From assembly GCF_058153355.1 (NCBI RefSeq), contig NZ_CM177019.1: a stretch of 64,000 nucleotides of DNA. The stretch is one strand, 5' to 3'. Made by a program: the position numbers and the translations under genes. Shown here piece after piece: positions 5,294 through 59,095 of the stretch (position 1 is the first letter of the stretch; the number at the start of each line of letters is the position of its first letter). A model generated the notes under the pieces. It was not told the DNA's origin. It made no database searches and saw only the letters and a list, made by a program, of their open reading frames with translations.

Positions 5294-6363
5294 GCCAAAT
5301 CCTCATTGTTAAATGTCGGGTCGTTCGCCTGTGGAGCGTCTATCACCTCGGTAACCAGCGTATCGTTGGCGACGGGTGCAGGCGGAATAACGATCGACTC
5401 CGGCGTCACCACCGGCACCAGATGGCGGCTCAGCGGCGCTTTTTCAGTCAATAACTTACCGACCGTTGCCAGAAAATAACGCCCGCATAAACGCCCAAGT
5501 TTATAGTCTTCACGCAGCGCCGGAATCCGACTGCCGAGCGCGATACTATGTAATGGCTTCGGCGGATAAATTTCGAATATCCTCAACTGGCCCGGTGGTT
5601 TCTCAATAAATTGCTGAATCTCACGATAGCTGGTTTCATGATGCTGCACCAGATTGACCAGCGGCTGCAGGCTACTGTCACCCAGCCAGCGTTCCATGCG
5701 TTTGAACCACTGCGGCGTGTAGTACATTTGTGACGGCACAGTGCGGATGACGACTAACGTTTTTGCGCCCTGCCTTGCTGCCTCTTTAACCGGGATCGCA
5801 TCACTGATCCCGCCATCCAGGTAATTAATGCCTTCCAGCGACACTCCGCTACGATAAAAGCCCGGTATCGCACTGGAGGCGCGAATCACATCCAGCCAGT
5901 TCTGTTTGTTTGGCAAAAAGTAATTCGGCGCATAGTCATCCTGACGACAAGCGCACATATAAAACGATTTGCCGCTGTCAAATAGCCGCGCTGCGGTGTC
6001 CATTTGCAACGGCATCTGGCTTGCGGTGGCCTCCACCAGCCAGTCGAGATCGATAAGATTTCCTCCACGGACAAAGCGCAATGGATCGAAAAATTCGCGT
6101 TTTGTGGTATAGCGCATGATGACTTTGCGCGCGTAACCGGGCTGATTGCAGATATACGCCGAGAGGTTCTGCGCCCCGGCAGATGTGCCGAGATAAAGAT
6201 CGAAAGGATTAAACTGCGCGCGCATAAACTCATCCAGCACGCCAGCTGTGAAAATTCCACGCTGTCCGCCGCCTTCGCACACCAGAGCAATCCGTCCAGG
6301 CTGGAACGGCCTTAGCGACAACGGCGCAATATTACCAAGCGTTACAGGTATTCGCTGCCCCAC
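5290..6363 (-). CDS. yjjU: patatin-like phospholipase
   Basis: ORF 5290..6399; GxGxxG (CEGGGQRGIFTAGVL) and GTSAG serine motif typical of patatin family; start trimmed to the GTG giving ~357 aa. Confidence 0.8.
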   Translation of the reverse strand: MGQRIPVTLGNIAPLSLRPFQPGRIALVCEGGGQRGIFTAGVLDEFMRAQFNPFDLYLGTSAGAQNLSAYICNQPGYARKVIMRYTTKREFFDPLRFVRGGNLIDLDWLVEATASQMPLQMDTAARLFDSGKSFYMCACRQDDYAPNYFLPNKQNWLDVIRASSAIPGFYRSGVSLEGINYLDGGISDAIPVKEAARQGAKTLVVIRTVPSQMYYTPQWFKRMERWLGDSSLQPLVNLVQHHETSYREIQQFIEKPPGQLRIFEIYPPKPLHSIALGSRIPALREDYKLGRLCGRYFLATVGKLLTEKAPLSRHLVPVVTPESIVIPPAPVANDTLVTEVIDAPQANDPTFNNEDLA

Positions 6364-6484
6364 CTCTGCCTTCCTGTTTTTGTTGTGAAAGAATGACAAA
6401 GTAACGCAATTTATTATTCGCTAAAACCACAAAAGCCAGTCCGTTGGACTGGCTTTGGATAAAATTTTCTTAATGGTCTGAAAT

Positions 6485-6646
6485 CTAGGGTCGTTTTCGG
6501 CCCATGAACAAACTCACCAGGAACAGAATAATCCCGACGACAAAGACAATTTTAGCTGCGCCTGCAGCAGTACCGGCCAGACCACCAAACCCAAGTGCGG
6601 CGGCAATTAACGCGATAACCAGAAATATGATGCCCCAACGAAACAT
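6485..6646 (-). CDS. ytjA: small membrane protein (UPF0391)
   Basis: ORF 6485..6676; internal start [22 protein letters not shown] gives the 53-aa hydrophobic protein expected between yjjU and osmY. Confidence 0.7.
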
Positions 6647-6772
6647 AAGCGTCTCCTTTACCATAGTTAATGTCACCGCTTGATATGAGCGTGAAAATCA
6701 CTCAATGCGATATTTTTAGTGTGGTGCACATCGCGCCTCCCGACAAAGTTCGGGAGGTCGAATTACGACGAA

Positions 6773-7378
6773 TTACTTAGTTTTCAGATCATTTTTAACG
6801 CTTTTCACACCATCTACCGCTTTGGCGATACTTTCAGCACGGTCGCTCTGTGCCTGAGAATCTACGGTACCGGAGAGCTGAACCACACCATCGGTGGTTT
6901 CAACTTTCACTTTACGTGAAGGGACGATATCGTCCGCCAGCAGCTTGGCTTTGATTTCACTGGTGGTGGCGGTGTCACCCGCGTAGCCCTTCACAGAGCC
7001 TTCTTTAGCGTCGCGAACGTGCAGTTTGTCGCTGACAGAGGTCACGCCTTCAACGCCTTTCGCCACTTTCACTGCCTCTTCGGCCTGGGCCTGGCTTTCA
7101 ACGAAACCGCTCAGGGTCACGACTTTTTGATCGGTTTTGACAGAGATATCGGTGCTCTTGATGTTGTCATGATCCACCAGGGCCGCCTTCACTTTCGCGG
7201 TGATAGCGCTGTCATCCATGAAATTACCGACTTTATTCATAGAGCTATCGACTTTTTGCCCTGCACTTTCATTGGTTGTCTGCGCGTTGTTTTCTGCGTA
7301 GGCAGAGCCGGTCGCGACGGCAGAGGTCAACATTACAGCCAGCAGAGTTTTCGAAATCTTCAGTCTTGTCATAGTCAT
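6773..7378 (-). CDS. osmY: osmotically inducible periplasmic protein OsmY (two BON domains)
   Basis: ORF 6773..7456; start at [28 protein letters not shown] (signal peptide) gives 201 aa. Confidence 0.9.
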
Positions 7379-30313: not shown

Positions 30314-30664
30314 TCACTTAAGTCGTTCACGGGCCGTCTTCGCCTTATGACACGGCCAGCACAGACTCTGCAGATTACAGTCGGCATCAGTGCCGCCATG
30401 CGCTTTAGGGATGATGTGGTCAACGGTTTTCGCCTCACGCACCACACCAGCACGCAGACATAACTGACACAGGCCTTTGTCACGCTTCAGGACACGCGCG
30501 CGGATACTGTCCCACTTCGAACCATAGCCGCGCTGATGACGGGACTGACCTGGCTTGTATTGCTTCCAGCCTTCACTTTTGTGGCTTTCGCAATAGCCTG
30601 ACGGGTCAGTGGTTGTAGAGCTGCAGCCGCGAATACGGCAGGCCTTTGGGATTCGTGGTGGCAT
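30314..30664 (-). CDS. HNH endonuclease (terminase-associated)
   Basis: 116 aa with CQLCLRAG...DHIIPKAHGGTD...CWPCHKAK (HNH with zinc-binding Cys pairs); sits upstream of the terminase genes as in HK97-type phages. Confidence 0.85.
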   Translation of the reverse strand: MPPRIPKACRIRGCSSTTTDPSGYCESHKSEGWKQYKPGQSRHQRGYGSKWDSIRARVLKRDKGLCQLCLRAGVVREAKTVDHIIPKAHGGTDADCNLQSLCWPCHKAKTARERLK

Positions 30665-30689
30665 TTATCAATCTCCACTCAATTCCTTT

Positions 30690-31214
30690 CTACTTCGTCA
30701 TCATTTTACTAAGTTCCTGAGGAGTCAATTCCCATGTAATAAACCGAGAAGACTCCAAAACATCATCTTCTCCGAGCAAGTATTTACGTATATTCTTCAT
30801 GAAGACCCTATAATCTGGGGCATCATTCTTGTGCGACAGAATTTTAGACAATTCCGTTGCTAGATCAGCTGGTAACCATAAAAAAGCCTCATTTGTTAAT
30901 TGTCTTAATCTTTTTCTGTCATAGGGATTTGTCATCCATTCAGACATAAGCTCGGCAATTAATGCCGACTTCATTCTTATCTCATGTTGCCTTTTTTGCT
31001 TATCCAGAATAACAGTGTTTGCTGTTTTTATTGTTTCAAGCATAACATCGTATTCATGCTTGACTGCATTCTGCACAGTGCTTTGTAGCCAAGTTCTCCC
31101 AATAAAAAACATTAAAGGGAGTATTACAACCCAAGCGATTACATTTGCTATCCAACCAGCGTCCATATCTATCCTCATGAAAATAAAAATGATTAACACA
31201 CAAGCTGTTAGCAT
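30690..31214 (-). CDS. hypothetical membrane-anchored protein, AT-rich cargo gene
   Basis: 174 aa; two N-terminal hydrophobic helices followed by a charged soluble domain; clearly lower GC than neighbours; no family recognised. Confidence 0.6.
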   Translation of the reverse strand: MLTACVLIIFIFMRIDMDAGWIANVIAWVVILPLMFFIGRTWLQSTVQNAVKHEYDVMLETIKTANTVILDKQKRQHEIRMKSALIAELMSEWMTNPYDRKRLRQLTNEAFLWLPADLATELSKILSHKNDAPDYRVFMKNIRKYLLGEDDVLESSRFITWELTPQELSKMMTK

Positions 31215-31225
31215 ATAACATTATT

Positions 31226-31483
31226 TCAATGATTACTTCTTTTGCTTTCTATTTTGCGGATTGCAACTTTATCTTGATTACATTGATTTAATGCTGATAA
31301 CAAATTCACATTCAAATCAAGACTTGCACCATACGTCAGTGGGTTGGGTATAAACGGTACAGGAGTATCAGAAGTCAAGCTGACTGGTAGTGGTGTCTTC
31401 GGAATGCTCACGTAAACTGTTCGCGTACTTCCGCAACCTGTCAGCAGCGGCAGCAGGTACAGGACGGGCAGCACAATCATCAT
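31226..31483 (-). CDS. o-spanin Rz1 (outer-membrane lipoprotein), embedded in the Rz gene in another frame
   Basis: MMIVLPVLYLLPLLTGC lipobox; Pro-rich mature part; lies within/overlapping 31368..31760. Confidence 0.65.
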   Translation of the reverse strand: MMIVLPVLYLLPLLTGCGSTRTVYVSIPKTPLPVSLTSDTPVPFIPNPLTYGASLDLNVNLLSALNQCNQDKVAIRKIESKRSNH

Positions 31484-31760
31484 CCGCAACAGCCACTTTA
31501 ATATCTTCCTGGGTTCTCTGTGACTCCAGTGCGATCTGCTGTTTTGCATGCTGGTTAGCCTCCAGAACTGTATTGACGATTTGCATTGATTGCAGGACGT
31601 TATTGGTAATGGCAGTTGCTGATTCAGCATTTTGTACAGCCTCATCAGCACGTTTCTTTTCGTACTGATATTTGCTGTAGTAGTAGTTGGCTGACCAGAT
31701 GAAAGAACCAATGGCAGTAACGAAAAAAGCAGCGATAATCAGCTTATAACTCAACTTCAT
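31368..31760 (-). CDS. i-spanin Rz
   Basis: 130 aa; N-terminal transmembrane segment plus coiled coil; follows the endolysin gene. Confidence 0.7.
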   Translation of the reverse strand: MKLSYKLIIAAFFVTAIGSFIWSANYYYSKYQYEKKRADEAVQNAESATAITNNVLQSMQIVNTVLEANQHAKQQIALESQRTQEDIKVAVADDDCAARPVPAAAADRLRKYANSLREHSEDTTTSQLDF

Positions 31761-32223: not shown

Positions 32224-32559
32224 TTACTCCTTAGAGCCACCAAACTTGTTACCGATTACTCTCATTGCAGCCCCACGAATTGCATCGACCCCAATCAGCC
32301 CCACCCCACCACCAATGGCAACAGAAAGCGATTTAGGCCATCCGACATACTCAAGCGCGGATGCAAAGGTCAGCGTCAGAGCGCCACAGAGCAAAATTTC
32401 GAGTGTTTTTCGTTTCCAGCCGCCACCACCACCAAAATAGGCAATACGCAAACCAGCCATAACAATCGACATAATCACTGCGCCCAGCGGCGTATCTCCA
32501 CGCCACCAGCTCTGGAACAACTCCAGCCAGTCCGGCCAGGTATTTGGGTTATGAGGCAT
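32224..32559 (-). CDS. putative holin
   Basis: 111 aa with 2-3 hydrophobic helices and a charged C-terminus, immediately upstream of the endolysin. Confidence 0.6.
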   Translation of the reverse strand: MPHNPNTWPDWLELFQSWWRGDTPLGAVIMSIVMAGLRIAYFGGGGGWKRKTLEILLCGALTLTFASALEYVGWPKSLSVAIGGGVGLIGVDAIRGAAMRVIGNKFGGSKE

Positions 32560-32636: not shown

Positions 32637-33689
32637 TTATTTCCCCACCAGTTCACTTACCTCTTTCACCGTCTGGTTAAACCGATCTGACTCAAACTCA
32701 ACACCTAACGCCCGACGCCCCAGCGCCATTGCTGCTTTTATTGTGGAACCGGATCCCATAAAGAAATCAGCAACCAGATCGCCTGGTCGACTACTGGCAT
32801 TGATTATTTGCCGGAGCATATCCGCAGGCTTCTCACACGGATGTTTACCCGGGTAGAACTGAACGGGTTTATGCGTCCAGACGTCGGTATAAGGCACGGA
32901 AACTGATACGGAGAAATAGCGCCGGAGAGTTTTAAACTCATCCAGCAATTCAGAATATTTGCGATTCAGTGAATCATAAGATGCCACCAGCTGGTGGTGT
33001 GTGTGTTCCAGTTGTTGTTCCTGAAACTTCTCTGCCGCTATACGGGAAAACAGTGCCTGCAACTTTCGGTAGTCAGCCTCGTTCGGCAACTGCCACTGAC
33101 TGGCACCAAACCAGTGGGAAACCATATTTTTCTTACCAGTGGCTTCGGCAATCTGTTTTGCCGTTATCCCCAGTTCGGCACGAGCATCCCTGAAATACGA
33201 AATCAGCGGTGCCATTATGTGCTGTTTGAGTTCCCTTTCTTTTGCCGCATAGCCGTCACTTTTGCCGCGATATGGCCCCTGGTAATGTTCAGCAAACAGA
33301 ACGCGCTCTGTTGCGGGAAAATATGCGCGCAGACTTTCTTTATTACACCCGTTCCATCGTCCGGACGGCTTCGCCCAGATGATATGGTTAAGCACGTTGA
33401 AACGTTCACGCATCATGATCTCGATATCAGATGCGAGGCGATGTCCACAGAACAGGTAAAGGCTTCCGGCAGGTTTCAACACCCGCCAGAACTGGGCCAG
33501 ACAATGGTCCAGCCACTTAAGGTAATCTTCGTCCCCTTTCCACTGATTGTCCCAGCCGTTGGGTTTCACCTTGAAGTACGGCGGATCGGTAACAATCAGG
33601 TCAATGGAATCATCAGGCAGGGACTGAATAAAATACAGGCAATCAGCGTTGATTAAATCAGCACTGTTTATTTTTACAGTATTTTTCAT
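32637..33689 (-). CDS. DNA methyltransferase (N6-adenine or N4-cytosine, beta-class)
   Basis: 350 aa; motif IV TDPPYF near the N-terminus and AdoMet motif FFMGSGST near the C-terminus. Confidence 0.8.
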   Translation of the reverse strand: MKNTVKINSADLINADCLYFIQSLPDDSIDLIVTDPPYFKVKPNGWDNQWKGDEDYLKWLDHCLAQFWRVLKPAGSLYLFCGHRLASDIEIMMRERFNVLNHIIWAKPSGRWNGCNKESLRAYFPATERVLFAEHYQGPYRGKSDGYAAKERELKQHIMAPLISYFRDARAELGITAKQIAEATGKKNMVSHWFGASQWQLPNEADYRKLQALFSRIAAEKFQEQQLEHTHHQLVASYDSLNRKYSELLDEFKTLRRYFSVSVSVPYTDVWTHKPVQFYPGKHPCEKPADMLRQIINASSRPGDLVADFFMGSGSTIKAAMALGRRALGVEFESDRFNQTVKEVSELVGK

Positions 33690-40409: not shown

Positions 40410-40647
40410 CAGATAAGTCTTTAATCTTTTGAAAAATATCTGGACGTAATTTTTCTTTTGATACGCCAGTGGTCATTTCAATGAATATCGAGAGCTTTGC
40501 AGGGGGACGCTTTTCTCTGTTCAACCAGTTCCAGACATGTTGTTGCTTTACTAAACGACCACTGCTGGCTGTGAGCTTCCGAGCCAATTCTGATTGACCA
40601 CCAGCCAGAGCGATTGCCTCTGATAAGGCTAATTGCTCAGGTGTCAT
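40399..40647 (-). CDS. Cro-like HTH regulator (YdaS-like)
   Basis: 82 aa, divergent from the CI-like repressor across an operator region. Confidence 0.7.
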   Translation of the reverse strand: MTPEQLALSEAIALAGGQSELARKLTASSGRLVKQQHVWNWLNREKRPPAKLSIFIEMTTGVSKEKLRPDIFQKIKDLSDGK

Positions 40648-40650
40648 AGC

Positions 40651-40784
40651 TTTCTCCTATCTGTAAGTAGTAAAGTTGTTGATAACTTCGATTATACAAC
40701 TACAACAACTTTTATTACAACTTTTAGATGTTGGAAAGCTAAAACATAAAGTTGTAACCTCAATAAAAACGAGGGGGATATGTT
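40651..40784. promoter_or_regulatory. OR-like operator/promoter region with repeated AAGTTGT / ACAACTT half-sites
   Basis: Divergent intergenic region between cro-like and cI-like genes with at least four copies of the heptamer in both orientations; the same motif recurs at 41650..41700. Confidence 0.55.
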
Positions 40785-41471
40785 GTGAAAACATTGGCAG
40801 AAAGACTAAAAAGCGAAAGAGAAAAAGCAGGAATGAGTCAGGCGCAACTAGCTGAAAAAATTGGACTTTCACAACAATCCGTAGCGAAAATCGAGAATGG
40901 AGAAACTCAACAGCCTCGGAAAATTAAAGAGATTGCTAAAGTGTTAGGGGTTTCTCAAAAGTGGTTGCAATTGGGCATTGAGGATAACGCGTCTTTCCCA
41001 AACCTTGTTGTAAAGGAGGCTGAAAGTACAACATTAGATCCTGACATTTTTGCAAACATTCCTGTCCTAGATGTCGAATTATCAGCGGGTAATGGATGTT
41101 TGGCTGAAATAGTTGAATCAACTGTAGACTGGTTCCCGCTAAGAAGGATTGATTTAAGGAAAGCTGGTGTATGTGTCTCCAATGCAAAGATCGTAAAAAT
41201 TTGGGGTAATAGTTTACTACCTGTACTTAACAATGGAGATTTTGTTGCTGTTGATGTTTCCCAAACAGTTCCTATTCGTGATGGGGATCTTTATGCTATA
41301 CGTGATGGCGTATTACTTAGAGTTAAAATATTGATCAATTTACCTGACGGTGGTCTGATTCTAAGAAGTTTCAATAAAGATGAGTATCCAGATGAAATAC
41401 TCACCTTCGAAGATAGGCGTTCCAGAATTCACGTTATAGGTAGAGTATTCTGGTCATCGCGCACTTGGTAA
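40785..41471 (+). CDS. CI-like repressor (HTH_XRE N-domain + S24 LexA-type peptidase C-domain)
   Basis: 228 aa; GMSQAQLAEKIGLSQQSVAKIENG HTH; C-terminal domain with Ser (GNSLLP) and Lys (RVKIL) typical of autocleaving repressors; GTG start with SD GAGGGGG. Confidence 0.85.
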   Translation: MKTLAERLKSEREKAGMSQAQLAEKIGLSQQSVAKIENGETQQPRKIKEIAKVLGVSQKWLQLGIEDNASFPNLVVKEAESTTLDPDIFANIPVLDVELSAGNGCLAEIVESTVDWFPLRRIDLRKAGVCVSNAKIVKIWGNSLLPVLNNGDFVAVDVSQTVPIRDGDLYAIRDGVLLRVKILINLPDGGLILRSFNKDEYPDEILTFEDRRSRIHVIGRVFWSSRTW

Positions 41472-41649
41472 TGCATCAAAAACATTCCTTCAGAAATTTA
41501 GTTACCATTATTACCCGCCTTTTCAATCTTCCTCCCGTGATTTGAGAGTTTCCAATCACGGAAGGAAAGTGTCCATTGTGTAATTAAAAGCGCATCGTCC
41601 ATACAACCTCCTTTTTTGATAACCCTAGCCCCCATTTAACATCCGTCAA

Positions 41650-41700
41650 AACCACATAAAGTTGTTGACAACAACCAAAACAACAACTAGATTACAACTT
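41650..41700. promoter_or_regulatory. OL-like operator region (AAGTTGTTGACAACAACC palindrome and further ACAACTT copies)
   Basis: Same heptamer family as the OR region, located downstream of cI and upstream of the plus-strand early-left genes. Confidence 0.5.
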
Positions 41701-45133: not shown

Positions 45134-45912
45134 TGACCACATTTACCAATAAAGAACTGATTAAAGAAATCAAAGAACGAATCAGCAGCCTAGAGGTTCG
45201 AGACGATATTGAGCGCCGTGCTTATGAAATTGCTCTGGCATCGCTAGAAGAGGAGCCGGTGGCATGGCTGCATTCAGAAAATGGCTTAGGTATTCCGGCA
45301 ATAACGAGGTGTAAAAACATTGCTGACAGTTGGTTATCAAAGGGCTGGTATGTTCAGCCGCTATATATAGCCAAGCCAGTGCCGGTAGTGCCAGATGCTC
45401 GTCCGTCTTTAAATAATGGCATAGTCGGTTTTGATGAAGGCTGGAACGCCTGCCGCGCCGCCATGCTTCATGGTGCCGAACCTGTAAACCAAACTTACAA
45501 GTCACCACACACGCAGTTTGAACAAGTTGCTGACCTCTACGAAATGCAATTTGATGACGGTCGCACTTGTGCCTTTCACACTGATGCGCAAAAGGCTGCG
45601 CAATGGCTTCAGGTGTGCGACGGAAACAGGGTTCAGGAATACGTTAAGCTGGAACGGCTGCAGAACGCGCTGTCTGGCAACTCTCCGGTAAGTCCGGGTG
45701 GTTGGATAAGCTGTAGTGAGCGAATGCCGAATGATAAACAGTATGTTTGGTGTTGGGGGAAGTCTTACGGCTGGACTGAGTGCGATACCTTCGAAGGGTA
45801 TTATGATTGGTCGAGAAACAAATGGTGGGCAGTTACTGACAATGAGGAAGAACAGGCATCGAAAGTAACCCACTGGATGCCACTACCGGAGCCGCCGCAG
45901 GAGGTGAAGTAA
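45133..45912 (+). CDS. hypothetical protein with Trp-rich C-terminal domain (DUF551-like)
   Basis: 259 aa; C-terminus WISCSERMPNDKQYVWCWGKSYGWTECDTFEGYYDWSRNKWWAVTD. Confidence 0.5.
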   Translation: MTTFTNKELIKEIKERISSLEVRDDIERRAYEIALASLEEEPVAWLHSENGLGIPAITRCKNIADSWLSKGWYVQPLYIAKPVPVVPDARPSLNNGIVGFDEGWNACRAAMLHGAEPVNQTYKSPHTQFEQVADLYEMQFDDGRTCAFHTDAQKAAQWLQVCDGNRVQEYVKLERLQNALSGNSPVSPGGWISCSERMPNDKQYVWCWGKSYGWTECDTFEGYYDWSRNKWWAVTDNEEEQASKVTHWMPLPEPPQEVK

Positions 45913-46106
45913 TGAACAACTTAATGACAACTAAACAAGTCGCCGATTTCTGTGGTGTTTCAGTATCGACAGTTCTTCGCTGGAACAGCGTAAACAGGAG
46001 AACTGGTCAGAAATATAGGCCTGACTTTCCAGATCCTGATATTAAATCCTGCCCAAATAAATGGGCATCACACAAGATTTACAGATTTGCGGGAGTGATT
46101 GAGTAA
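45912..46106 (+). CDS. excisionase/AlpA-like HTH protein
   Basis: 64 aa; TTKQVADFCGVSVSTVLRW helix-turn-helix; located near the integrase. Confidence 0.6.
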   Translation: MNNLMTTKQVADFCGVSVSTVLRWNSVNRRTGQKYRPDFPDPDIKSCPNKWASHKIYRFAGVIE

Positions 46107-46388
46107 TATGTATTAGCTTAGATGTGAGCTGACACATCTATGCTTAGATGCCAAACCTAATCTGAGCGTCCACTCTTTACCAAGAGCGGACGTTACCAAT
46201 GACCATATGACATGAATCGATAAGATCAAAACATTATCACCAAGAAATGTCATACCATTGATACAAATAAAATTGATTACCCCCTTACTCTTGTTGAAAA
46301 GTTAGTCGTAGAGTACCTATCGCAATGTAATCAGCTTTAATCATCTTAAAATTACTCCTTAAAAATTAGCTTTTATATACTGAACAAA

Positions 46389-47108
46389 TTAAATCTCTGT
46401 TTCTTTTCCTGCTCGGCTCAACCAATACTCCATTGTTTGAGTATGAATCTTTTCAGCGTATATTTTATCAATTAATTTATCTTGTTTTTCTTTAATGACT
46501 TCACGCAGTGAATCATATAACATAAAAAAACGTTCATCATCTTCCTCATTATTACCGTAATTTATTTGATTGAGCTCTGAAAAAATATGATAGTACCTTT
46601 TCTTCTTGGTCCCCGGCAATATTAAAACCAAGCCACATTGATCATATTCGAATTCACCTTTATGGGCAGCAAAGTTATGTCTAACATTCATAATAGAATC
46701 ATGTAAATCTCTGTATTTTTCTGGCACATGCTTTCTCTGCAATGTGAATCGACGCCCTTTCGCCTCTGTAAAACACTTACCGTAAGTAACAACTTTTGAT
46801 ATAAATAAAGACTTTAATATTAGATTCTTTTCTAAATCCGGATAAATAAAGTGTTGTTCTTTATTAATGTTATTACAAATGTTTTTTATTATATTCTCCC
46901 AACCAATAACATTCCGAAGATCTTTATCAAGCAACTGTAAGGCCACATATTGTTCTACAAAGCGGCCTTTTAAAGGTATTCGTGGTAATATTACACCTTT
47001 CTGCTTATAAATTCTTTCTATCGTATTATCTGGATATTGGATCTTCCTTATTTCTATTCCGTCTTCTTCTGATACCCTTACTAATGGTTCATTTTTTAAC
47101 TTTGACAT
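46389..47108 (-). CDS. hypothetical protein, AT-rich cargo gene between xis and int
   Basis: 239 aa; markedly AT-rich relative to flanks; own intergenic regions on both sides; no family recognised. Confidence 0.6.
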   Translation of the reverse strand: MSKLKNEPLVRVSEEDGIEIRKIQYPDNTIERIYKQKGVILPRIPLKGRFVEQYVALQLLDKDLRNVIGWENIIKNICNNINKEQHFIYPDLEKNLILKSLFISKVVTYGKCFTEAKGRRFTLQRKHVPEKYRDLHDSIMNVRHNFAAHKGEFEYDQCGLVLILPGTKKKRYYHIFSELNQINYGNNEEDDERFFMLYDSLREVIKEKQDKLIDKIYAEKIHTQTMEYWLSRAGKETEI

Positions 47109-47394
47109 GTTAACCCTCTTAAATAAAAAACTAACTTTATCCAGATAGTGTCCGTTAAGAAGTTTTCGTTACAACTAAGTTTCTAGGTAAATCATGAATC
47201 GACCTATAGTATCAAAAACATTTGGTGGTAAACATCTGCATTTATCAAATGGCAGGAGCGATTTAGGGGCATAGGGATAGTGATGATATCGATACTCGCC
47301 CCCCTCTTATGTCAACACAATGGCGTAAACTTAACGCTCACATCTCGCTCAAAGTGTGCTAGGAGATTTGGTTATGTTCAGGTGATACAAACCG

Positions 47395-48618
47395 TCAGTT
47401 TGAATCAGAGATAGTACAATTAACAATCGATTCAACCCTCTTCCACCATGCCAGGTAAGCTTTACGCTGTTCTTCTAGATAATCGCTCTTATCATAAACT
47501 TGCCATACCCCTGGCAGCTTATGACCAAGCATAATTTCTGCGATATGAGGCGCAGTAAGATCAGAAAAATTTGTTCGAGCTGTACGTCTCAAGTCATGAA
47601 GAGACCAATGAGGGAATTGATATCCTAAACACCGCCATGCGTACTGCATTAAATTGTAAGGCAGCGACTGCAATGATGTCCGACCAACGGGTTCCCTGCT
47701 TCCTTCCTTAGTAAAAAGCATATCGGAACCATTGTTCATAGAGATAGCGTACTTTATAAGCTCTTCAACCGGTTCAATAATGGGCCGCTTTAGCGGTTCG
47801 CCTGTTATCTCCCCTGTCTTATGTCGTTCTGGTGGTACAGTCCATACTTTATTAATGAAATCAAAATCGTCCACCCGGGCGGTAATTAGCTCTGAACTAC
47901 GGCAACCAAAATGCAGCAATAGTTTAATGAAGGCCCGGTATTTAGGAACCATTCGAGAACCATCGATCGCAGCATAAAGGATTTTAATTTCATCATGTGT
48001 CAGAAACCGTTTCTTCTGACCTTTACGGATATCCATATCTTTACCCGTGATATCCGACAGCGGGCGAGTTTCAATGAGCTTTCTCTTATACGCCCAGACA
48101 TGGGCCTGCTTTGCGTTAATTAGCAATCGGTCTGCTATTGCTGGAGTCTTAGTGCTAAGAGGCTCCAGGACTTCTAACCAATCATGCAATGTAGCTGCAT
48201 CGTGAGGGATATTCCCGATTTTAGAGAACAGGTGCAGCTCAAACGAGCGAAGTATCTGTTCAGAACCTTTTTTATTTTTTACACAATATGCTTCATACCA
48301 AGCACGGATCACAGACTCTACCGTCATGGCTTCAGTAGCTTTTCGTTTTTCAGCCTGCTTGACCAATCGTGGATTACGGTTTGACTCGAGTTCACCACGA
48401 AGACGGATAACTTCTTCTCTGGCCTCTTTTAATCCAGTTGCCGGGTAAGTTCCGATATCAAGACGCTCACCTTTCCCTGCCCATTGATAACGATATTGGA
48501 ACACTACGCGACCTTTCGGTGATACTCTGACAGACAGACCATCACGATCGGATTTAACCAAAACCTTATCACGTTCCTTTCCAACGACTGAACGCAACCA
48601 CGCATCAGACAGCGCCAT
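47395..48618 (-). CDS. tyrosine integrase (P4-type)
   Basis: 407 aa; C-terminal catalytic region with HDLRRTARTNF and a downstream Tyr; adjacent to attR and the arm-type sites. Confidence 0.9.
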   Translation of the reverse strand: MALSDAWLRSVVGKERDKVLVKSDRDGLSVRVSPKGRVVFQYRYQWAGKGERLDIGTYPATGLKEAREEVIRLRGELESNRNPRLVKQAEKRKATEAMTVESVIRAWYEAYCVKNKKGSEQILRSFELHLFSKIGNIPHDAATLHDWLEVLEPLSTKTPAIADRLLINAKQAHVWAYKRKLIETRPLSDITGKDMDIRKGQKKRFLTHDEIKILYAAIDGSRMVPKYRAFIKLLLHFGCRSSELITARVDDFDFINKVWTVPPERHKTGEITGEPLKRPIIEPVEELIKYAISMNNGSDMLFTKEGSREPVGRTSLQSLPYNLMQYAWRCLGYQFPHWSLHDLRRTARTNFSDLTAPHIAEIMLGHKLPGVWQVYDKSDYLEEQRKAYLAWWKRVESIVNCTISDSN

Positions 48619-51727: not shown

Positions 51728-54090
51728 CCCTGTCGGGTAGCAGCGATTCATTACTGTCTCGCCGCCCCCTAAGAACGGTACGTGCGAGTTTCCCCGCATA
51801 CCGCTCAAGCCTTTATAAGCCTCCACCTTGTGGGAGACCAGCGTCATTACTATGTAGTTGTCGATGGCAGTTGGGATGGAGTAGGACTAAATTGCTCACA
51901 TCATCGCTACCGCCAAGAGATTTCTTGAGCAAATGATGAACATTCCATCCTGTATCGCGATTAATCGGTTGCTCACATAAAGGGCAGCGCGATCCTTGCC
52001 TTTTCCATATAGCGAGAATCCTTTTCTGCCCCTGTTGGGATTTCTTCCATGAGTAGTCCAGCCTTCTTTCGAAGTATGTTTCCCACTCGGGATCATATGG
52101 ATTTGCCGTTCCCTTTATTTTTATATAGCGATTAATATGGATGTCGCTGGCCCGGGACAGAACATATTTCCTACCCTCCGGATCGACTCCATAAAATCGA
52201 CCATGACACATTTTTATTGTCGTGTGGTACTTTCGGAAGATCCATCTCCGGCCTTTGCCGGGATGTCTCCTTCTGCACCACTGCCAGATTTTGCGCCAGA
52301 TTTGGTTGTCGACATAGTTAAATGTCTCTGCCGATGCTACATGTTGGTGATAGTTTGCCCACCCGGTGATGATTGGATTAAGCAGATTTATTAGCACCCA
52401 TGCAGGAACCGTTCGGTTACCTTCAATAGTCTCTCTGATCTTGCTAAGAAATTGTTTAACGTTTTTCTTGGCTGGTCTGATTATGAGTTTTCTACCGAAG
52501 CGTCGGACGTGCTGCCCAAGGAAATCAAATCCGTCAGTAATGTGAGTGATGACCGTTTTCTCTTCGGATAACGTCAGCCCTCTTTCTGCAAGAAATGATT
52601 TCACCAACGGAAGAACATTCTCCTCCAGAAGTTCTTTCGACTTTCCGGAAATGATGAAATCATCAGCATACCGGACGAAGTGAACCTGATGTTTCCTGAA
52701 TGTTTTTGAGCGTTTCGGACCAAAGCGATTTTGCAGCAGTCTTTCCAGTCCATCCAGGGCCATGTTTGCCAGAACTGGAGATATGATTCCTCCCTGGGGT
52801 GTACCCGAGAGAGTTTTGCTGAATATGCTTTTTTCGATGATCCCGGCTTTCAACCAATTACGGAGTATTTGCTTGTCCATAGGAATATTTTCAAGCAGCC
52901 ACTCGTGGCTAATGTGTTCAAAGCATCCTTTAATATCGCCTTCCAGAACCCATTTCGAGGCGTTCCGGGAACTATACATATTACATACCTGTTGAATGGC
53001 GTCAGCCGTACATCGCGCTGGTCTGAAACCATAACTGTTGTGATCTGCATTAGTTTCCGATACAGGCTCCAATCCCAGCAGATGCAGGGCCTGCATTGCC
53101 CTGTCAAGCATGACGGGGATTCCTAATGGTCTTTTCTTGCCATTAGATTTGGGTATAAAAACTCTTTTTAGCGGTAGGGGCTTGTACCCTTTTCGCCTGA
53201 GTTTGAATATCGCTTCCCATTTTGATTCTGGAGTACTCCAGATTTGACCATCAACTCCGGGGGTTTTACGCCCGCTATTTTCCGTAACTCGTTTCACCGC
53301 CAGTGCTCTGGCGCTGAATGAGCGAACCAGCAATCGTTGCAATCTACCGACTGTACGCCATTGCTGGTTACATGCCGCCTTTGCGATTCTTGTCTGTATG
53401 GTTTTAACGTGTTGATGGCATTTCTTCCAGTTAATGGAATGCCAACCTTTTCCGTTGATGACCGCAGTTACATTGTTAGATGTAATTTTCATACATGTCA
53501 TCCAAAGAAACCTTCGCAGATGTTTCGCAATTAAAGACCAGATGGAAGTCAGCACGGTTTCCCGTTAAGGCAAATATTGAACCTCTATCCGCACGATTAC
53601 AGTCCGGCTTTCGCTTTTTCCATCCTCCTTTACCCGCATTCTCATCAGTTTGCCTTACGGTGCCCCTGCCACTAGGGCGAGAATTCGGGCTTACCAAGTT
53701 CCGACCAACATACAAAGAACGGGTTAGGTTCTGTCTATCCGCCGGGGGAGTTATTGTCCATGTATTCCCACTACGAACAGGAATAGCCTTACCCCTTACC
53801 TTTTGGTGCAAGCCTATCAGCATCTTTGGCTCGTTCTCTGTTACGACGTTTAACGACAGTTCACTATGTTAACCATACCGCCCAGCCTAGCGCTCTCGCC
53901 GCATGATGCTTGTAGCGATCAGGTTTTCTCACGATTAACTGAAGCAATATTTGCTAAGCTACATTGTCCCAAGGGCTTCAGACAGAGCCGTTACCAGCTT
54001 TGCCTGCCTCAGTAGGCTACAACTAATGGAATAGTTGGTTTTATATAAATAATTTATCAAAACAATATGTTGGACGACTTCTTGTCGCAC
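51728..54090 (-). mobile_element. group II intron (~2.36 kb), boundaries approximate at the 3' end
   Basis: 5' end GTGCGACAAG (reverse complement of 54081..54090); RT/maturase/HNH ORF; canonical domain V GAGCGGTATGCGGGGAAACTCGCACGTACCGTTC (reverse complement of 51773..51806) 7 nt after the ORF stop. Confidence 0.75.
51813..53492 (-). CDS. group II intron reverse transcriptase/maturase with C-terminal HNH endonuclease domain
   Basis: ORF 51813..53555; RT motifs including YADDFII; maturase (X) region; C-terminal CPLCEQ...HH...NCHRQLH; likely start at MKITSNNVT. Confidence 0.85.
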   Translation of the reverse strand: MKITSNNVTAVINGKGWHSINWKKCHQHVKTIQTRIAKAACNQQWRTVGRLQRLLVRSFSARALAVKRVTENSGRKTPGVDGQIWSTPESKWEAIFKLRRKGYKPLPLKRVFIPKSNGKKRPLGIPVMLDRAMQALHLLGLEPVSETNADHNSYGFRPARCTADAIQQVCNMYSSRNASKWVLEGDIKGCFEHISHEWLLENIPMDKQILRNWLKAGIIEKSIFSKTLSGTPQGGIISPVLANMALDGLERLLQNRFGPKRSKTFRKHQVHFVRYADDFIISGKSKELLEENVLPLVKSFLAERGLTLSEEKTVITHITDGFDFLGQHVRRFGRKLIIRPAKKNVKQFLSKIRETIEGNRTVPAWVLINLLNPIITGWANYHQHVASAETFNYVDNQIWRKIWQWCRRRHPGKGRRWIFRKYHTTIKMCHGRFYGVDPEGRKYVLSRASDIHINRYIKIKGTANPYDPEWETYFERRLDYSWKKSQQGQKRILAIWKRQGSRCPLCEQPINRDTGWNVHHLLKKSLGGSDDVSNLVLLHPNCHRQLHSNDAGLPQGGGL

Positions 54091-54317: not shown

Positions 54318-54404
54318 GCGAAGGTGGCGGAATTGGTAGACGCGCTAGCTTCAGGTGTTAGTGTCCTTACGGACGTGGGGGTTCAAGTCCCCCCCCTCGC
54401 ACCA
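54318..54404 (+). tRNA. leuQ: tRNA-Leu (anticodon CAG), copy 1
   Basis: 87-nt sequence GCGAAGGTGGCGGAATTGGTAGACGCGCTAGCTTCAGGTGTTAGTGTCCTTACGGACGTGGGGGTTCAAGTCCCCCCCCTCGCACCA, matching E. coli tRNA-Leu1 with encoded CCA. Confidence 0.95.
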
Positions 54405-54432
54405 AAAACCACGTTGATATTGCTCGCACTGG

Positions 54433-54519
54433 GCGAAGGTGGCGGAATTGGTAGACGCGCTAGCTTCAGGTGTTAGTGTTCTTACGGACGTGGGGGTTCA
54501 AGTCCCCCCCCTCGCACCA
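54433..54519 (+). tRNA. leuP: tRNA-Leu (CAG), copy 2 (one C to T difference in the variable arm)
   Basis: Same 87-nt sequence except GTGTTCTTACGG instead of GTGTCCTTACGG. Confidence 0.95.
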
Positions 54520-54552
54520 AACGAGGCGATATCAAAAAAGTAAGATGACTGT

Positions 54553-54639
54553 GCGAAGGTGGCGGAATTGGTAGACGCGCTAGCTTCAGGTGTTAGTGTC
54601 CTTACGGACGTGGGGGTTCAAGTCCCCCCCCTCGCACCA
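54553..54639 (+). tRNA. leuV: tRNA-Leu (CAG), copy 3
   Basis: Identical to copy 1. Confidence 0.95.
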
Positions 54640-56559: not shown

Positions 56560-57242
56560 TCTGCGGCATCTCCATAAACAGAAGGCAAGTTAAGTTCTCT
56601 TGCACCCTGCGCGCTATTTATCCATGCATACATTTCAGCGTTGCTGTGAATTGCCAGTCGACGCATCGCACTGTTTTTTTGGGCGCTGATAGTTTTATTA
56701 CTTTTCTTAAGCAATGAAGCTATCTGGTTGATGCCCCATCCTTTACCTAATAGCCGCAGCACTTTGCGCTCTGAAAGAGTGAGAATGACGGAGCGATAGC
56801 TAAAATCATGCGTTTCAGTCATTGCCGGAGAGGTCAGCATGGCGCTGATACGCTCTGCGTGCGTATTGCCAGAACGCACGGTCTTAACCAGATTCTCAAT
56901 GGGTTCAACATCAGACAATAATGTCGCCGTAGGGCACATGAGAAGTTCTACCGCCTGGGAATACCAGGAGCGTGACACCATGAAAACCCAGTGAATTTCC
57001 CGATATTGTGAGATTAAAGAATAATAATGTTCACAAACAAAACGTGGATCTTCACTTTCACCGGCTAAATCAGCAATGACTAATCCGGAACGACGTAATT
57101 GTAATAAAGTAAGGTCCTCCGCAGAGGCGCTGGATATTATTTTATATTCAGGGAAGTGAGTCCTCATGACCTCTTTTAACCCTGCTTGCATAACAGGTAT
57201 TTTACTGATAACAATTCCATTTTTGCAGCATCCTGGCAACAT
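56517..57242 (-). CDS. yjjQ: LuxR-family transcriptional regulator
   Basis: 241 aa, LuxR HTH ([23 protein letters not shown]). Confidence 0.85.
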
Positions 57243-57860
57243 ATTTCCTCCACATCCACTGTCTAAAAATCATGATGGTCTATTCAGGATATTCATTCCT
57301 TAAATGTTTCCAGCAAATTAATAGATTAAGCGAATAAATTATCCTTTGCATTCACTTTCATATCAGCATACTCCTGCTGCACAATAACTCCACTGCATGT
57401 GTCAGAAGGTTAGCATCAAATGATAACCTGGTGAAATAGCCTGGAGACATTTAAAATATCTACATTAAGTTGTTAGAAATACTTAATGAAAAACAGAATC
57501 TTCATTCATTTAATTTATAATTAACTGATATCCCTTCCCGCAGGATGCAAAATCACACAATCAATATTTATTCAATAAAATCTGATAGTTTTAACTTGTT
57601 AAAATTAAAAAACGCGCCCAGTTATCTTTTATCCTGATTCGTAAGGGCTAAACAATAAATTCATTATAGTGATAATATTCATGCGATAATTTGTTTGCGG
57701 CGAGAGATAATTCGCTTTTTAACACCGAGCTTCTCCCGATAACCAGGATTAATCAGCGCAATTTTGATCTTAACCTGCCGCAAAACAACCGCGCTTCATG
57801 ATACAAATGGATTCTCATTATCTGAACAATACGCAGCACGTCTATGACAAAGGGCGAATT

Positions 57861-59095
<1,235 letters not shown>

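Follow-up and report, generated by a model that had tools for sequence, protein, structure and literature searches.

A horizontally mobile, AT-rich accessory gene between the spanin and terminase genes of an Escherichia coli prophage

What is an AT-rich open reading frame (ORF) doing between the lysis and packaging genes of a lambdoid prophage? The question is raised by a 64,000-nucleotide (nt) stretch of NCBI RefSeq assembly GCF_058153355.1 (contig NZ_CM177019.1; the whole stretch is ‘the window’, and its positions count from its first letter), in which such an ORF lies on the minus strand in the late region of an Escherichia coli prophage. An earlier note, made from the sequence alone, had read it as a 174-amino-acid (aa) protein with two N-terminal hydrophobic helices and a charged soluble domain, carried as moron-type cargo and acting perhaps in superinfection exclusion, in abortive infection (Abi) or as a lysis regulator. 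We find that it is a real, conserved, undescribed and horizontally mobile accessory gene of the prophage, with a product that is probably shorter and simpler than the one first described, and for which a role in phage conflict is our best, if tentative, explanation.

The gene and its predicted product

The ORF runs uninterrupted over 174 codons of the minus strand (30690..31214), and this is the length on which the first description rested. However, in alignments of all 37 closest homologues and of the wider family, the homologues start at Met17 of the query (MDAGW...), and the 16-codon extension ahead of this position is seen elsewhere only in a 99%-identical E. coli copy that is annotated with the long start. 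A GAGG motif sits 6 nt 5′ of the Met17 ATG (31166), and no ribosome-binding site or Shine–Dalgarno motif was found before the upstream ATG (31214). Because the homologues start at Met17 and the GAGG stands there, the product is probably 158 aa long with one transmembrane helix, not 174 aa long with two, and the extension is probably not translated. The candidate first helix (LTACVLIIFIFM) consists of 12 hydrophobic residues within this extension, and because the segment is unconserved and too short for a membrane span, only one transmembrane helix is supported. The features of the gene are as follows.

30690..31166, minus strand: family-protein coding sequence (158 aa), beginning at Met17 of the 174-codon ORF and ending with a TAG stop codon (homologue starts, GAGG, 351 related clusters)
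31167..31214, minus strand: 16-codon 5′ extension (MLTACVLIIFIFMRID), with the GAGG ribosome-binding site inside it at 31173..31176
31089..31157, minus strand: single N-terminal transmembrane helix, residues 4–26 (GWIANVIAWVVILPLMFFIGRTW; Kyte–Doolittle 2.2 over 19 residues; helical in the AlphaFold2 (AF2) model)
30693..31088, minus strand: predicted cytoplasmic part, residues 27–158 (AF2 model; bias in lysine plus arginine (K+R))
30831..30908, minus strand: most conserved stretch, residues 87–112 (LRQLTNEAFLWLPADLATELSKILSH; alignments of close and wider homologues)

The same architecture recurs across the family: a single N-terminal hydrophobic segment is present in 136 of 145 members and a second segment in just one. 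The 15 residues on the C-terminal side of the membrane helix carry a mean of 3.24 K+R, against 0.35 on the N-terminal side, and the C-side count is the higher in 133 of the 136. By the positive-inside rule, this bias predicts an N-out/C-in topology family-wide and so would place the conserved domain in the cytoplasm. The AF2 model (mean predicted local distance difference test score (pLDDT) 83.7) is all-helical; in it, the membrane helix runs on as a stalk to about residue 79 and is followed by a small helical bundle (helices 85–97, 100–110, 119–131 and 149–157). Roughly 30% of the residues in the soluble part are charged, in keeping with the charged domain of the earlier note.

Conservation is concentrated in the bundle. 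The invariant and near-invariant positions are L73, W77, L87, L90, W97, L98, P99, L106, L110 and R127; the invariant residues fall mostly within 87–112 (L87, L90, W97, L98, P99, L106, L110), otherwise only at R127, and the conserved core reads LRQLTNEAFLWLPxDLAxELS. All of the invariant residues are hydrophobic or aromatic, apart from P99 and R127. As the family alignments contain no conserved set of Asp, His, Cys or Ser residues that would hint at catalysis, they point to a binding or scaffolding role for a non-enzymatic protein.

Family, genomic contexts and mobility

A word-indexed search with the protein returned 37 clusters, every one of them ‘hypothetical’, from Erwinia, Serratia, Hafnia, Citrobacter, Pantoea and Yersinia together with one E. 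coli draft assembly, and an exhaustive profile search extended the family to 351 clusters at 50% identity, mostly of 140–190 aa. A chance ORF can be dismissed because these clusters share invariant or near-invariant columns. Five loci were recovered by a profile search of genome contigs, and three independent E. coli sources hold a 99%-identical copy. Further members come from a Bacteroidetes metagenome-assembled genome (MAG) and, as matched by Foldseek, from flavobacteria and candidate-phyla bacteria.

No described family accounts for these proteins. Neither the query nor 61 diverse members matched Pfam; the query had no significant match in the PHROG, NCBIfam or PDB-sequence libraries and matched 0 families at E≤1 in PADLOC-DB v2, and a second profile-based word search added no further named relatives. 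Three divergent members found no tblastn match among 50,697 deposited phage genomes. The remote-homology and structure searches that the earlier note had called for yielded an all-helical model, and no informative family match or structure neighbour in PDB, BFVD or AFDB. A Foldseek search with the AF2 model found one AFDB50 protein annotated as DUF4760 (PF15956; E 1.5e-4, TM-score ~0.5, 25% identity), which is of similar size, and neither the query nor the 61 family members matched the DUF4760 Pfam profile. DUF4760 is itself uncharacterised, to judge from a full-text literature search in which a single paper mentioned it. The protein family is therefore undescribed, while the kind of gene, prophage cargo at the lysis/packaging boundary, is already known.

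Base composition sets the gene apart from its surroundings, as had been noted from the sequence: its GC content is 0.377, where the window as a whole has 0.50 and the adjoining late region 0.54, and just 3% of 477-nt segments are equally AT-rich. It lies within a larger islet whose edges, at ~30680 and ~31340, are sharp in the 120-nt GC profile.

30680..31340: AT-rich islet, GC 0.28–0.41 (120-nt GC profile), comprising the gene, a 59-nt spacer and the last ~115 nt of the o-spanin gene Rz1

In comparisons with E. coli relatives, the flanks are ~92% identical to the window, the stretch 31228..31380 is only 78.6% identical, and the gene is unmatched. That the islet takes in the last ~115 nt of Rz1 would suit a gene gained by recombination, one of whose junctions fell within the conserved 3′ end of Rz1.

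The gene is rare in E. coli. None of 5,426 complete E. coli genomes has it, and the flanks match at 80–95% in 2,958 E. coli genomes, none of which covers the gene. Prophages that lack it are otherwise collinear here and hold other cargo in the slot between the HNH endonuclease gene and Rz1 (L001 and L002). In L001, the equivalent of window positions 30665–31225 is occupied by an opposite-strand pair of genes (L001:2317-3322, plus strand) encoding 111-aa and 189-aa proteins, of which the latter may have a PD-ExK-like motif by eye. In L002, the same slot holds a gene for a 184-aa protein (L002:2216-2770, minus strand) with, by eye, an apparent N-terminal hydrophobic anchor and a helical body; its architecture resembles that of the window protein and it has no detectable homology to it. 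The slot cargo of neither locus matched PADLOC, and the L002 protein did not match Pfam. Homology of the window protein to the membrane-anchored, 184-aa same-slot cargo of E. coli AMSCJX04 was ruled out (hhalign probability 1%).

A foreign composition is general among carriers. Gene GC lies below that of the flanks in 32 of 34 scored loci, the exceptions being L031 and L043 where the two are about equal. In the Enterobacterales loci it is mostly 0.34–0.42 against flanks of 0.44–0.56, and the difference persists in high-GC hosts such as Pseudomonas oryzihabitans (0.42 vs 0.665) and Chitinimonas (0.45 vs 0.63). In most pairwise comparisons between the window and other carriers, DNA similarity starts at or near the start codon and stops within the ORF; it extends beyond the ORF in the near-identical E. 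coli loci L007 and L013, and for ~395 nt upstream in the Hafnia locus L004/L014. A conserved downstream partner gene was ruled out, the downstream genes being different at every locus.

Within prophages, the gene keeps a favoured position. At least 17 of 18 IMG/VR loci have it downstream of a lysis cassette and on that cassette’s strand, the same order holds in the genome loci of Erwinia, Hafnia, Serratia, Pantoea, Yersinia and E. coli, and the gene usually starts 60–130 nt past Rz1, ahead of the terminase genes. The prophages that carry it comprise at least four unrelated holin/endolysin sets and at least four terminase types. Other members lie elsewhere: within the head module of a Mu-like prophage, between insertion sequence (IS) elements on a conjugative Vibrio plasmid, beside a type I restriction–modification (R–M) system at one locus, beside toxin–antitoxin, resolvase and STAND-like genes in another context, and as solitary AT-rich islets between core genes (next to RadC, next to YebC/ParD, or next to an ABC transporter and bacterioferritin). 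A cassette array on a Vibrio europaeus plasmid holds a family gene directly after the anti-phage gene Hhe. Taken together, the gene is supported as single-gene mobile cargo of the moron type.

Two details of these contexts deserve mention. On the V. europaeus plasmid pVEu (L042:71-6537), 170 nt without a cassette repeat separate the family gene from the upstream gene for the 1,915-aa Hhe, and 126-nt repeats part all later cassettes; Hhe and the family gene may thus travel as one cassette. In three further loci, genes with an Acb2/Tad1 hairpin, resembling anti-CBASS/anti-Thoeris sponges, occur near or adjoining the family gene (L003:7627-7863, L025:5162-5392 and L031:5184-5414), which marks these regions as mixed zones of defence and anti-defence cargo.

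Expression signals and the neighbourhood in the window

In the relatives, the gene is often bounded by signals of its own. An intrinsic terminator (CCGCC, a 4-nt loop, GGCGG and T6–8) comes right after the stop codon in ~10 of 20 distinct loci, and a sigma-28 (FliA) class 3 promoter of the form TAAAGTTT-N11-GCCGATAA is found upstream of the gene in five independent loci when scored against the published consensus (PMC2859248). Another locus, the sixth, reaches 12/16. From the end of the −10 element to the ATG, the distance is always 27–32 nt, and scores of at least 14/16 are reached in only 6 of 3,622 background windows, the real sites being counted among them.

L003:7943-7969, Erwinia billingiae: sigma-28 promoter, 16/16
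L004:7942-7968 (= L014:4488-4514), Hafnia alvei: sigma-28 promoter, 16/16
L044, ending 29 nt upstream of 5980, Pantoea plasmid prophage: sigma-28 promoter, 15/16
L025:5914-5940, IMG/VR contig of a divergent clade: sigma-28 promoter, 14/16
L029:945-971, IMG/VR contig of a divergent clade: sigma-28 promoter, 13/16
L003, L004, L010, L018, L021, L022, L025, L026, L027 and L047: terminator after the gene

As predicted from these motifs, the promoter–gene–terminator relatives are textbook morons tied to the flagellar class 3 regulon, and their regulatory wiring is unusual. Sigma-28-like promoters were also observed before other cargo: on the minus strand of L004, one of 14/16 (~6575-6601) precedes a 72-aa cargo gene (6326-6544), and on that of L010, one of 13/16 (~7030-7058) precedes a 148-aa cargo gene (6560-7006). 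In Hafnia and Pantoea prophages, this slot may thus often hold cargo under FliA control.

The window copy is wired differently. Its best sigma-28 match (10/16) equals background, which leaves it outside the sigma-28 regulon; terminator scans found no terminator between the gene and HNH, and sigma-70 promoter matches upstream of the window copy are no commoner than in shuffled sequence. A sigma-70-like element (TTGACT-17-AATGAT, 9/12) at 30700-30728 on the minus strand lies in the 3′ end of the gene and faces HNH, and such matches are likewise not above their count in shuffles. As in the window, the sigma-28 promoter and the terminator are both absent from L007 and L013, the E. coli copies of 99% identity. 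Lacking such signals, the window copy is most simply read within the Q-dependent late transcript, and it is probably transcribed with the Q-dependent late genes.

How far, then, does the gene resemble a classical moron? Morons of the HK97 type were reportedly defined by Juhala and Hendrix. Like the classical lambdoid examples, the window gene is extra with respect to some collinear relatives, deviates in composition and has an envelope-associated product, and its relatives are flanked by their own promoter and terminator; unlike them, the relatives use a sigma-28 rather than a sigma-70 promoter, and neither kind of signal accompanies the window copy. The lambda bor product is an outer-membrane lipoprotein encoded on the opposite strand, whereas the window protein is predicted to be an inner-membrane, cytoplasm-facing protein and its gene lies on the late strand. 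On these grounds, the earlier placing of the gene among moron-type cargo at the lysis/packaging boundary holds: the slot differs between collinear prophages, the composition is foreign, and relatives have their own signals.

The late-region neighbours confirm the position first described, between an HNH–terminase module and the lysis cassette. All on the minus strand, they comprise HNH endonuclease, P27-type small terminase subunit (TerS), large terminase subunit (TerL) and portal genes on the packaging side and, on the lysis side, Rz1/Rz spanin, lambda R-type endolysin, lambda-family holin, DNA methyltransferase and Q antiterminator genes. The names were taken from the RefSeq annotation of ~92%-identical E. 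coli relatives and from Pfam matches on the 99%-identical contig. The 59-nt spacer separates the gene from Rz1, and its stop codon lies 25 nt from the HNH start.

31226..31483, minus strand: Rz1/LysC o-spanin, the upstream neighbour, 85 aa, lipobox LLTGC (translation; RefSeq of relatives; Pfam LysC on the 99%-identical contig)
31368..31760, minus strand: Rz, with Rz1 embedded in it and running past its end
30314..30664, minus strand: HNH endonuclease, the downstream neighbour, its ATG 25 nt past the stop codon of the gene
32224..32559, minus strand: lambda-family holin (RefSeq annotation of relatives; Pfam on the 99%-identical contig)

A gene for a 350-aa DNA methyltransferase (32637-33689, minus strand) opens the late operon; it lies between the genes for the Q antiterminator and the holin and is conserved in E. 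coli relatives. Outside the prophage late region, a group II intron (51732-54038, minus strand) adjoins three tandem tRNA-Leu(CAG) genes (54318-54639, plus strand); a 580-aa ORF (51813-53555) lies between its Rfam matches, which are to domains D1–D4 and to the catalytic region. Other AT-rich patches (477-nt GC ≤0.40) at 40600-41700, 45900-47600 and 56900-58000 may mark further acquired cargo.

Candidate functions

The best explanation for these observations, which we hold tentatively and at somewhat less than an even chance, is a mobile prophage moron that encodes an undescribed, non-enzymatic inner-membrane tether with a role in phage conflict, either exclusion or abortive infection. The single N-terminal helix would anchor the protein in the inner membrane in an N-out/C-in orientation, and the long stalk would hold the small, highly conserved helical bundle at the cytoplasmic face of the membrane, where it may bind a conserved component of the host or of an invading phage; the benefit to the carrier element would come through conflict with other phages. 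In several related prophages, the gene forms a self-contained unit with its sigma-28 promoter and terminator, and would hence be expressed in motile lysogens. In the window prophage, it would have arrived with neither signal, through a recombination junction in the Rz1 3′ end, and may be expressed within the Q-dependent late operon. We favour a phage-conflict function that benefits the carrier because of the lone copies in chromosomes, cassette arrays and plasmids, often beside restriction, toxin–antitoxin or defence genes, and because of the lysogen-type signals. The evidence from context leans away from a lysis role and towards a phage-independent function.

Precedents for such a protein exist. 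Lactococcal AbiP and Sie2009, HK97 gp15 and P22 SieA/SieB are small, single-gene prophage or plasmid products with N-terminal transmembrane anchors and no enzymatic motifs. The window protein is likewise small, encoded by a single gene, membrane-anchored and predicted to be non-enzymatic; unlike known defence and exclusion families, it has no PADLOC, PHROG, Pfam or NCBIfam match, and an anti-phage role for it is only proposed. Several points weigh against the phage-conflict explanation. The protein has no homology to known exclusion, abortive-infection or other defence proteins (PADLOC, 0 matches). The window copy has no promoter above chance and no terminator, and should its product appear only in the late phase of lytic growth, a lysogen would gain no protection. 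A block of DNA entry would sooner be expected of a periplasmic domain than of a cytoplasmic one. The proximity to defence genes is suggestive at most, the neighbours matched PADLOC weakly, and integron cassettes and islets also hold many non-defence genes. A more specific version, in which a new single-gene inner-membrane exclusion/Abi module hops among prophages, integron-like cassettes, plasmids and islets, and has been FliA-wired in enterobacterial prophages so as to protect motile lysogens exposed to flagellum-dependent phages, we regard as improbable.

The main rival, which we consider unlikely, is an accessory lysis protein that either is a functional counterpart of the Mu releasin gp25 or controls when the holin acts; as a product of the late transcript, it would tune the breach of the envelope from the cytoplasmic face of the membrane. 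Mu gp25 (DUF2730, PF10805) is a small late-region protein with one N-terminal transmembrane helix in N-out/C-in orientation, 3–4 periplasmic residues and a helical cytoplasmic domain, and is encoded between the spanin genes and that of the small terminase subunit (Chamblee et al., 2022; PMC9239132). The window protein shares this predicted architecture, with its single N-terminal transmembrane domain, N-out/C-in topology, few periplasmic residues and cytoplasmic helical domain, and its gene likewise lies between the spanins and the small terminase. The same-strand position after the lysis cassette, which recurs in nearly all of the IMG/VR loci and in all examined Enterobacterales genome loci, and the location of the window copy inside the late operon without signals of its own, also speak for such a role. 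However, the window protein is 158 aa long against 99 aa for gp25 and has no sequence or profile similarity to it, and homology to DUF2730/gp25 was ruled out (no PF10805 match for the query or the 61 members; hhalign probability 0.14%). Mu is a holin-less transposable phage whose endolysin is of the signal-anchor-release (SAR) type, while the window phage is of the lambdoid kind and has a Q antiterminator, a lambda-family holin, a soluble endolysin and a P27-type terminase, and the family, unlike gp25, also occurs outside phages.

Other evidence speaks against a lysis function more broadly. The holins next to family proteins of 55–78% mutual identity belong to at least four unrelated families and the endolysins to four types, which makes a specific lysis partner unlikely. 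A SAR-like hydrophobic segment at the N-terminus is missing from all four endolysin types, and the endolysin in the window is of the soluble lambda R type, paired with the lambda-family holin. Many members are distant from lysis genes or outside phages altogether, the family was not found in the deposited phage genomes, and a terminator with a sigma-28 promoter would be senseless for a late lysis gene. Membership in a known holin or antiholin family is not supported, since neither the lysis category of PHROG nor the holin families of Pfam and NCBIfam gave a match to the query, and the window phage already has a lambda-family holin. The identification of an antiholin or another standard lysis component, which would have undone the earlier note, was thus not made, and the other such outcome, a prediction free of transmembrane segments, did not come about either; of the functions it offered, none gained a family match, be it to known defence, holin, antiholin or releasin families.

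The sigma-28 promoters raise another alternative, an effector directed at the flagellum or at motility, which would be made together with class 3 genes, bind the motor, the export gate or the chemoreceptor array, and alter motility or block flagellum-entering phages. Near-consensus promoters at a fixed distance in five independent prophage copies from two divergent clades, at scores that background windows seldom reach, argue for this possibility, and as a precedent, prophages reportedly remodel flagella against flagellotropic phages (PMC13418256). We nevertheless think it quite improbable: the promoter is missing in the window copy, in the E. coli copies and at most other loci, where the best match stays at background; the sigma-28 logic would not apply to the Bacteroidetes MAG, flavobacterial and candidate-phyla members; and no similarity to any flagellar protein was found. 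Since other cargo in the same prophages also has sigma-28-like promoters, the promoter may be a mere convenience for expression in the lysogen. The flxA gene of the E. coli Qin prophage is a FliA-dependent prophage gene. Like it, the Erwinia, Hafnia and Pantoea relatives are prophage cargo under a predicted sigma-28 class 3 promoter; unlike it, they encode an unrelated protein at another prophage position, and the window copy has no such promoter.

Two further explanations fare worst. An anti-defence protein, made by the phage to neutralise a membrane-associated host immune effector, would suit the accessory region of the late operon and the loci L003 and L025, where the family gene immediately follows one with an Acb2/Tad1 hairpin (in L031, a weak Acb2-like gene is no more than 3 kb away), but this adjacency is found in just 2 of ~20 prophage loci, solitary chromosomal, cassette-array and plasmid copies have no phage to protect, the sigma-28 promoter and terminator imply expression in the lysogen, and late expression would come too late against most defences; we judge it very unlikely. 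We give as little credence to a silent passenger, an intact gene stripped of its own expression signals by recombination and without a role in the window prophage: the window, L007 and L013 copies do lack the relatives’ signals and E. coli very seldom has the gene at all (0 of 5,426 complete genomes), but nothing interrupts the ORF, its ribosome-binding site is good, the copies from three independent E. coli sources are 99% identical, and a gene inside the late operon would be transcribed upon induction.

On the window alone, this is a modest result, a real and rare accessory gene. The sigma-28 promoters of its relatives provide a testable link between prophage cargo and the motility programme of the host. 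If the protein were an accessory of lysis, it would represent a second, unrelated ‘releasin-like’ family, in holin-containing phages. If instead the phage-conflict function that we tentatively favour is true, an undescribed and very compact (~150 aa) family of non-enzymatic, membrane-tethered proteins would join the defence repertoire, and the post-spanin slot of lambdoid prophages would be a cargo hotspot worth mining.

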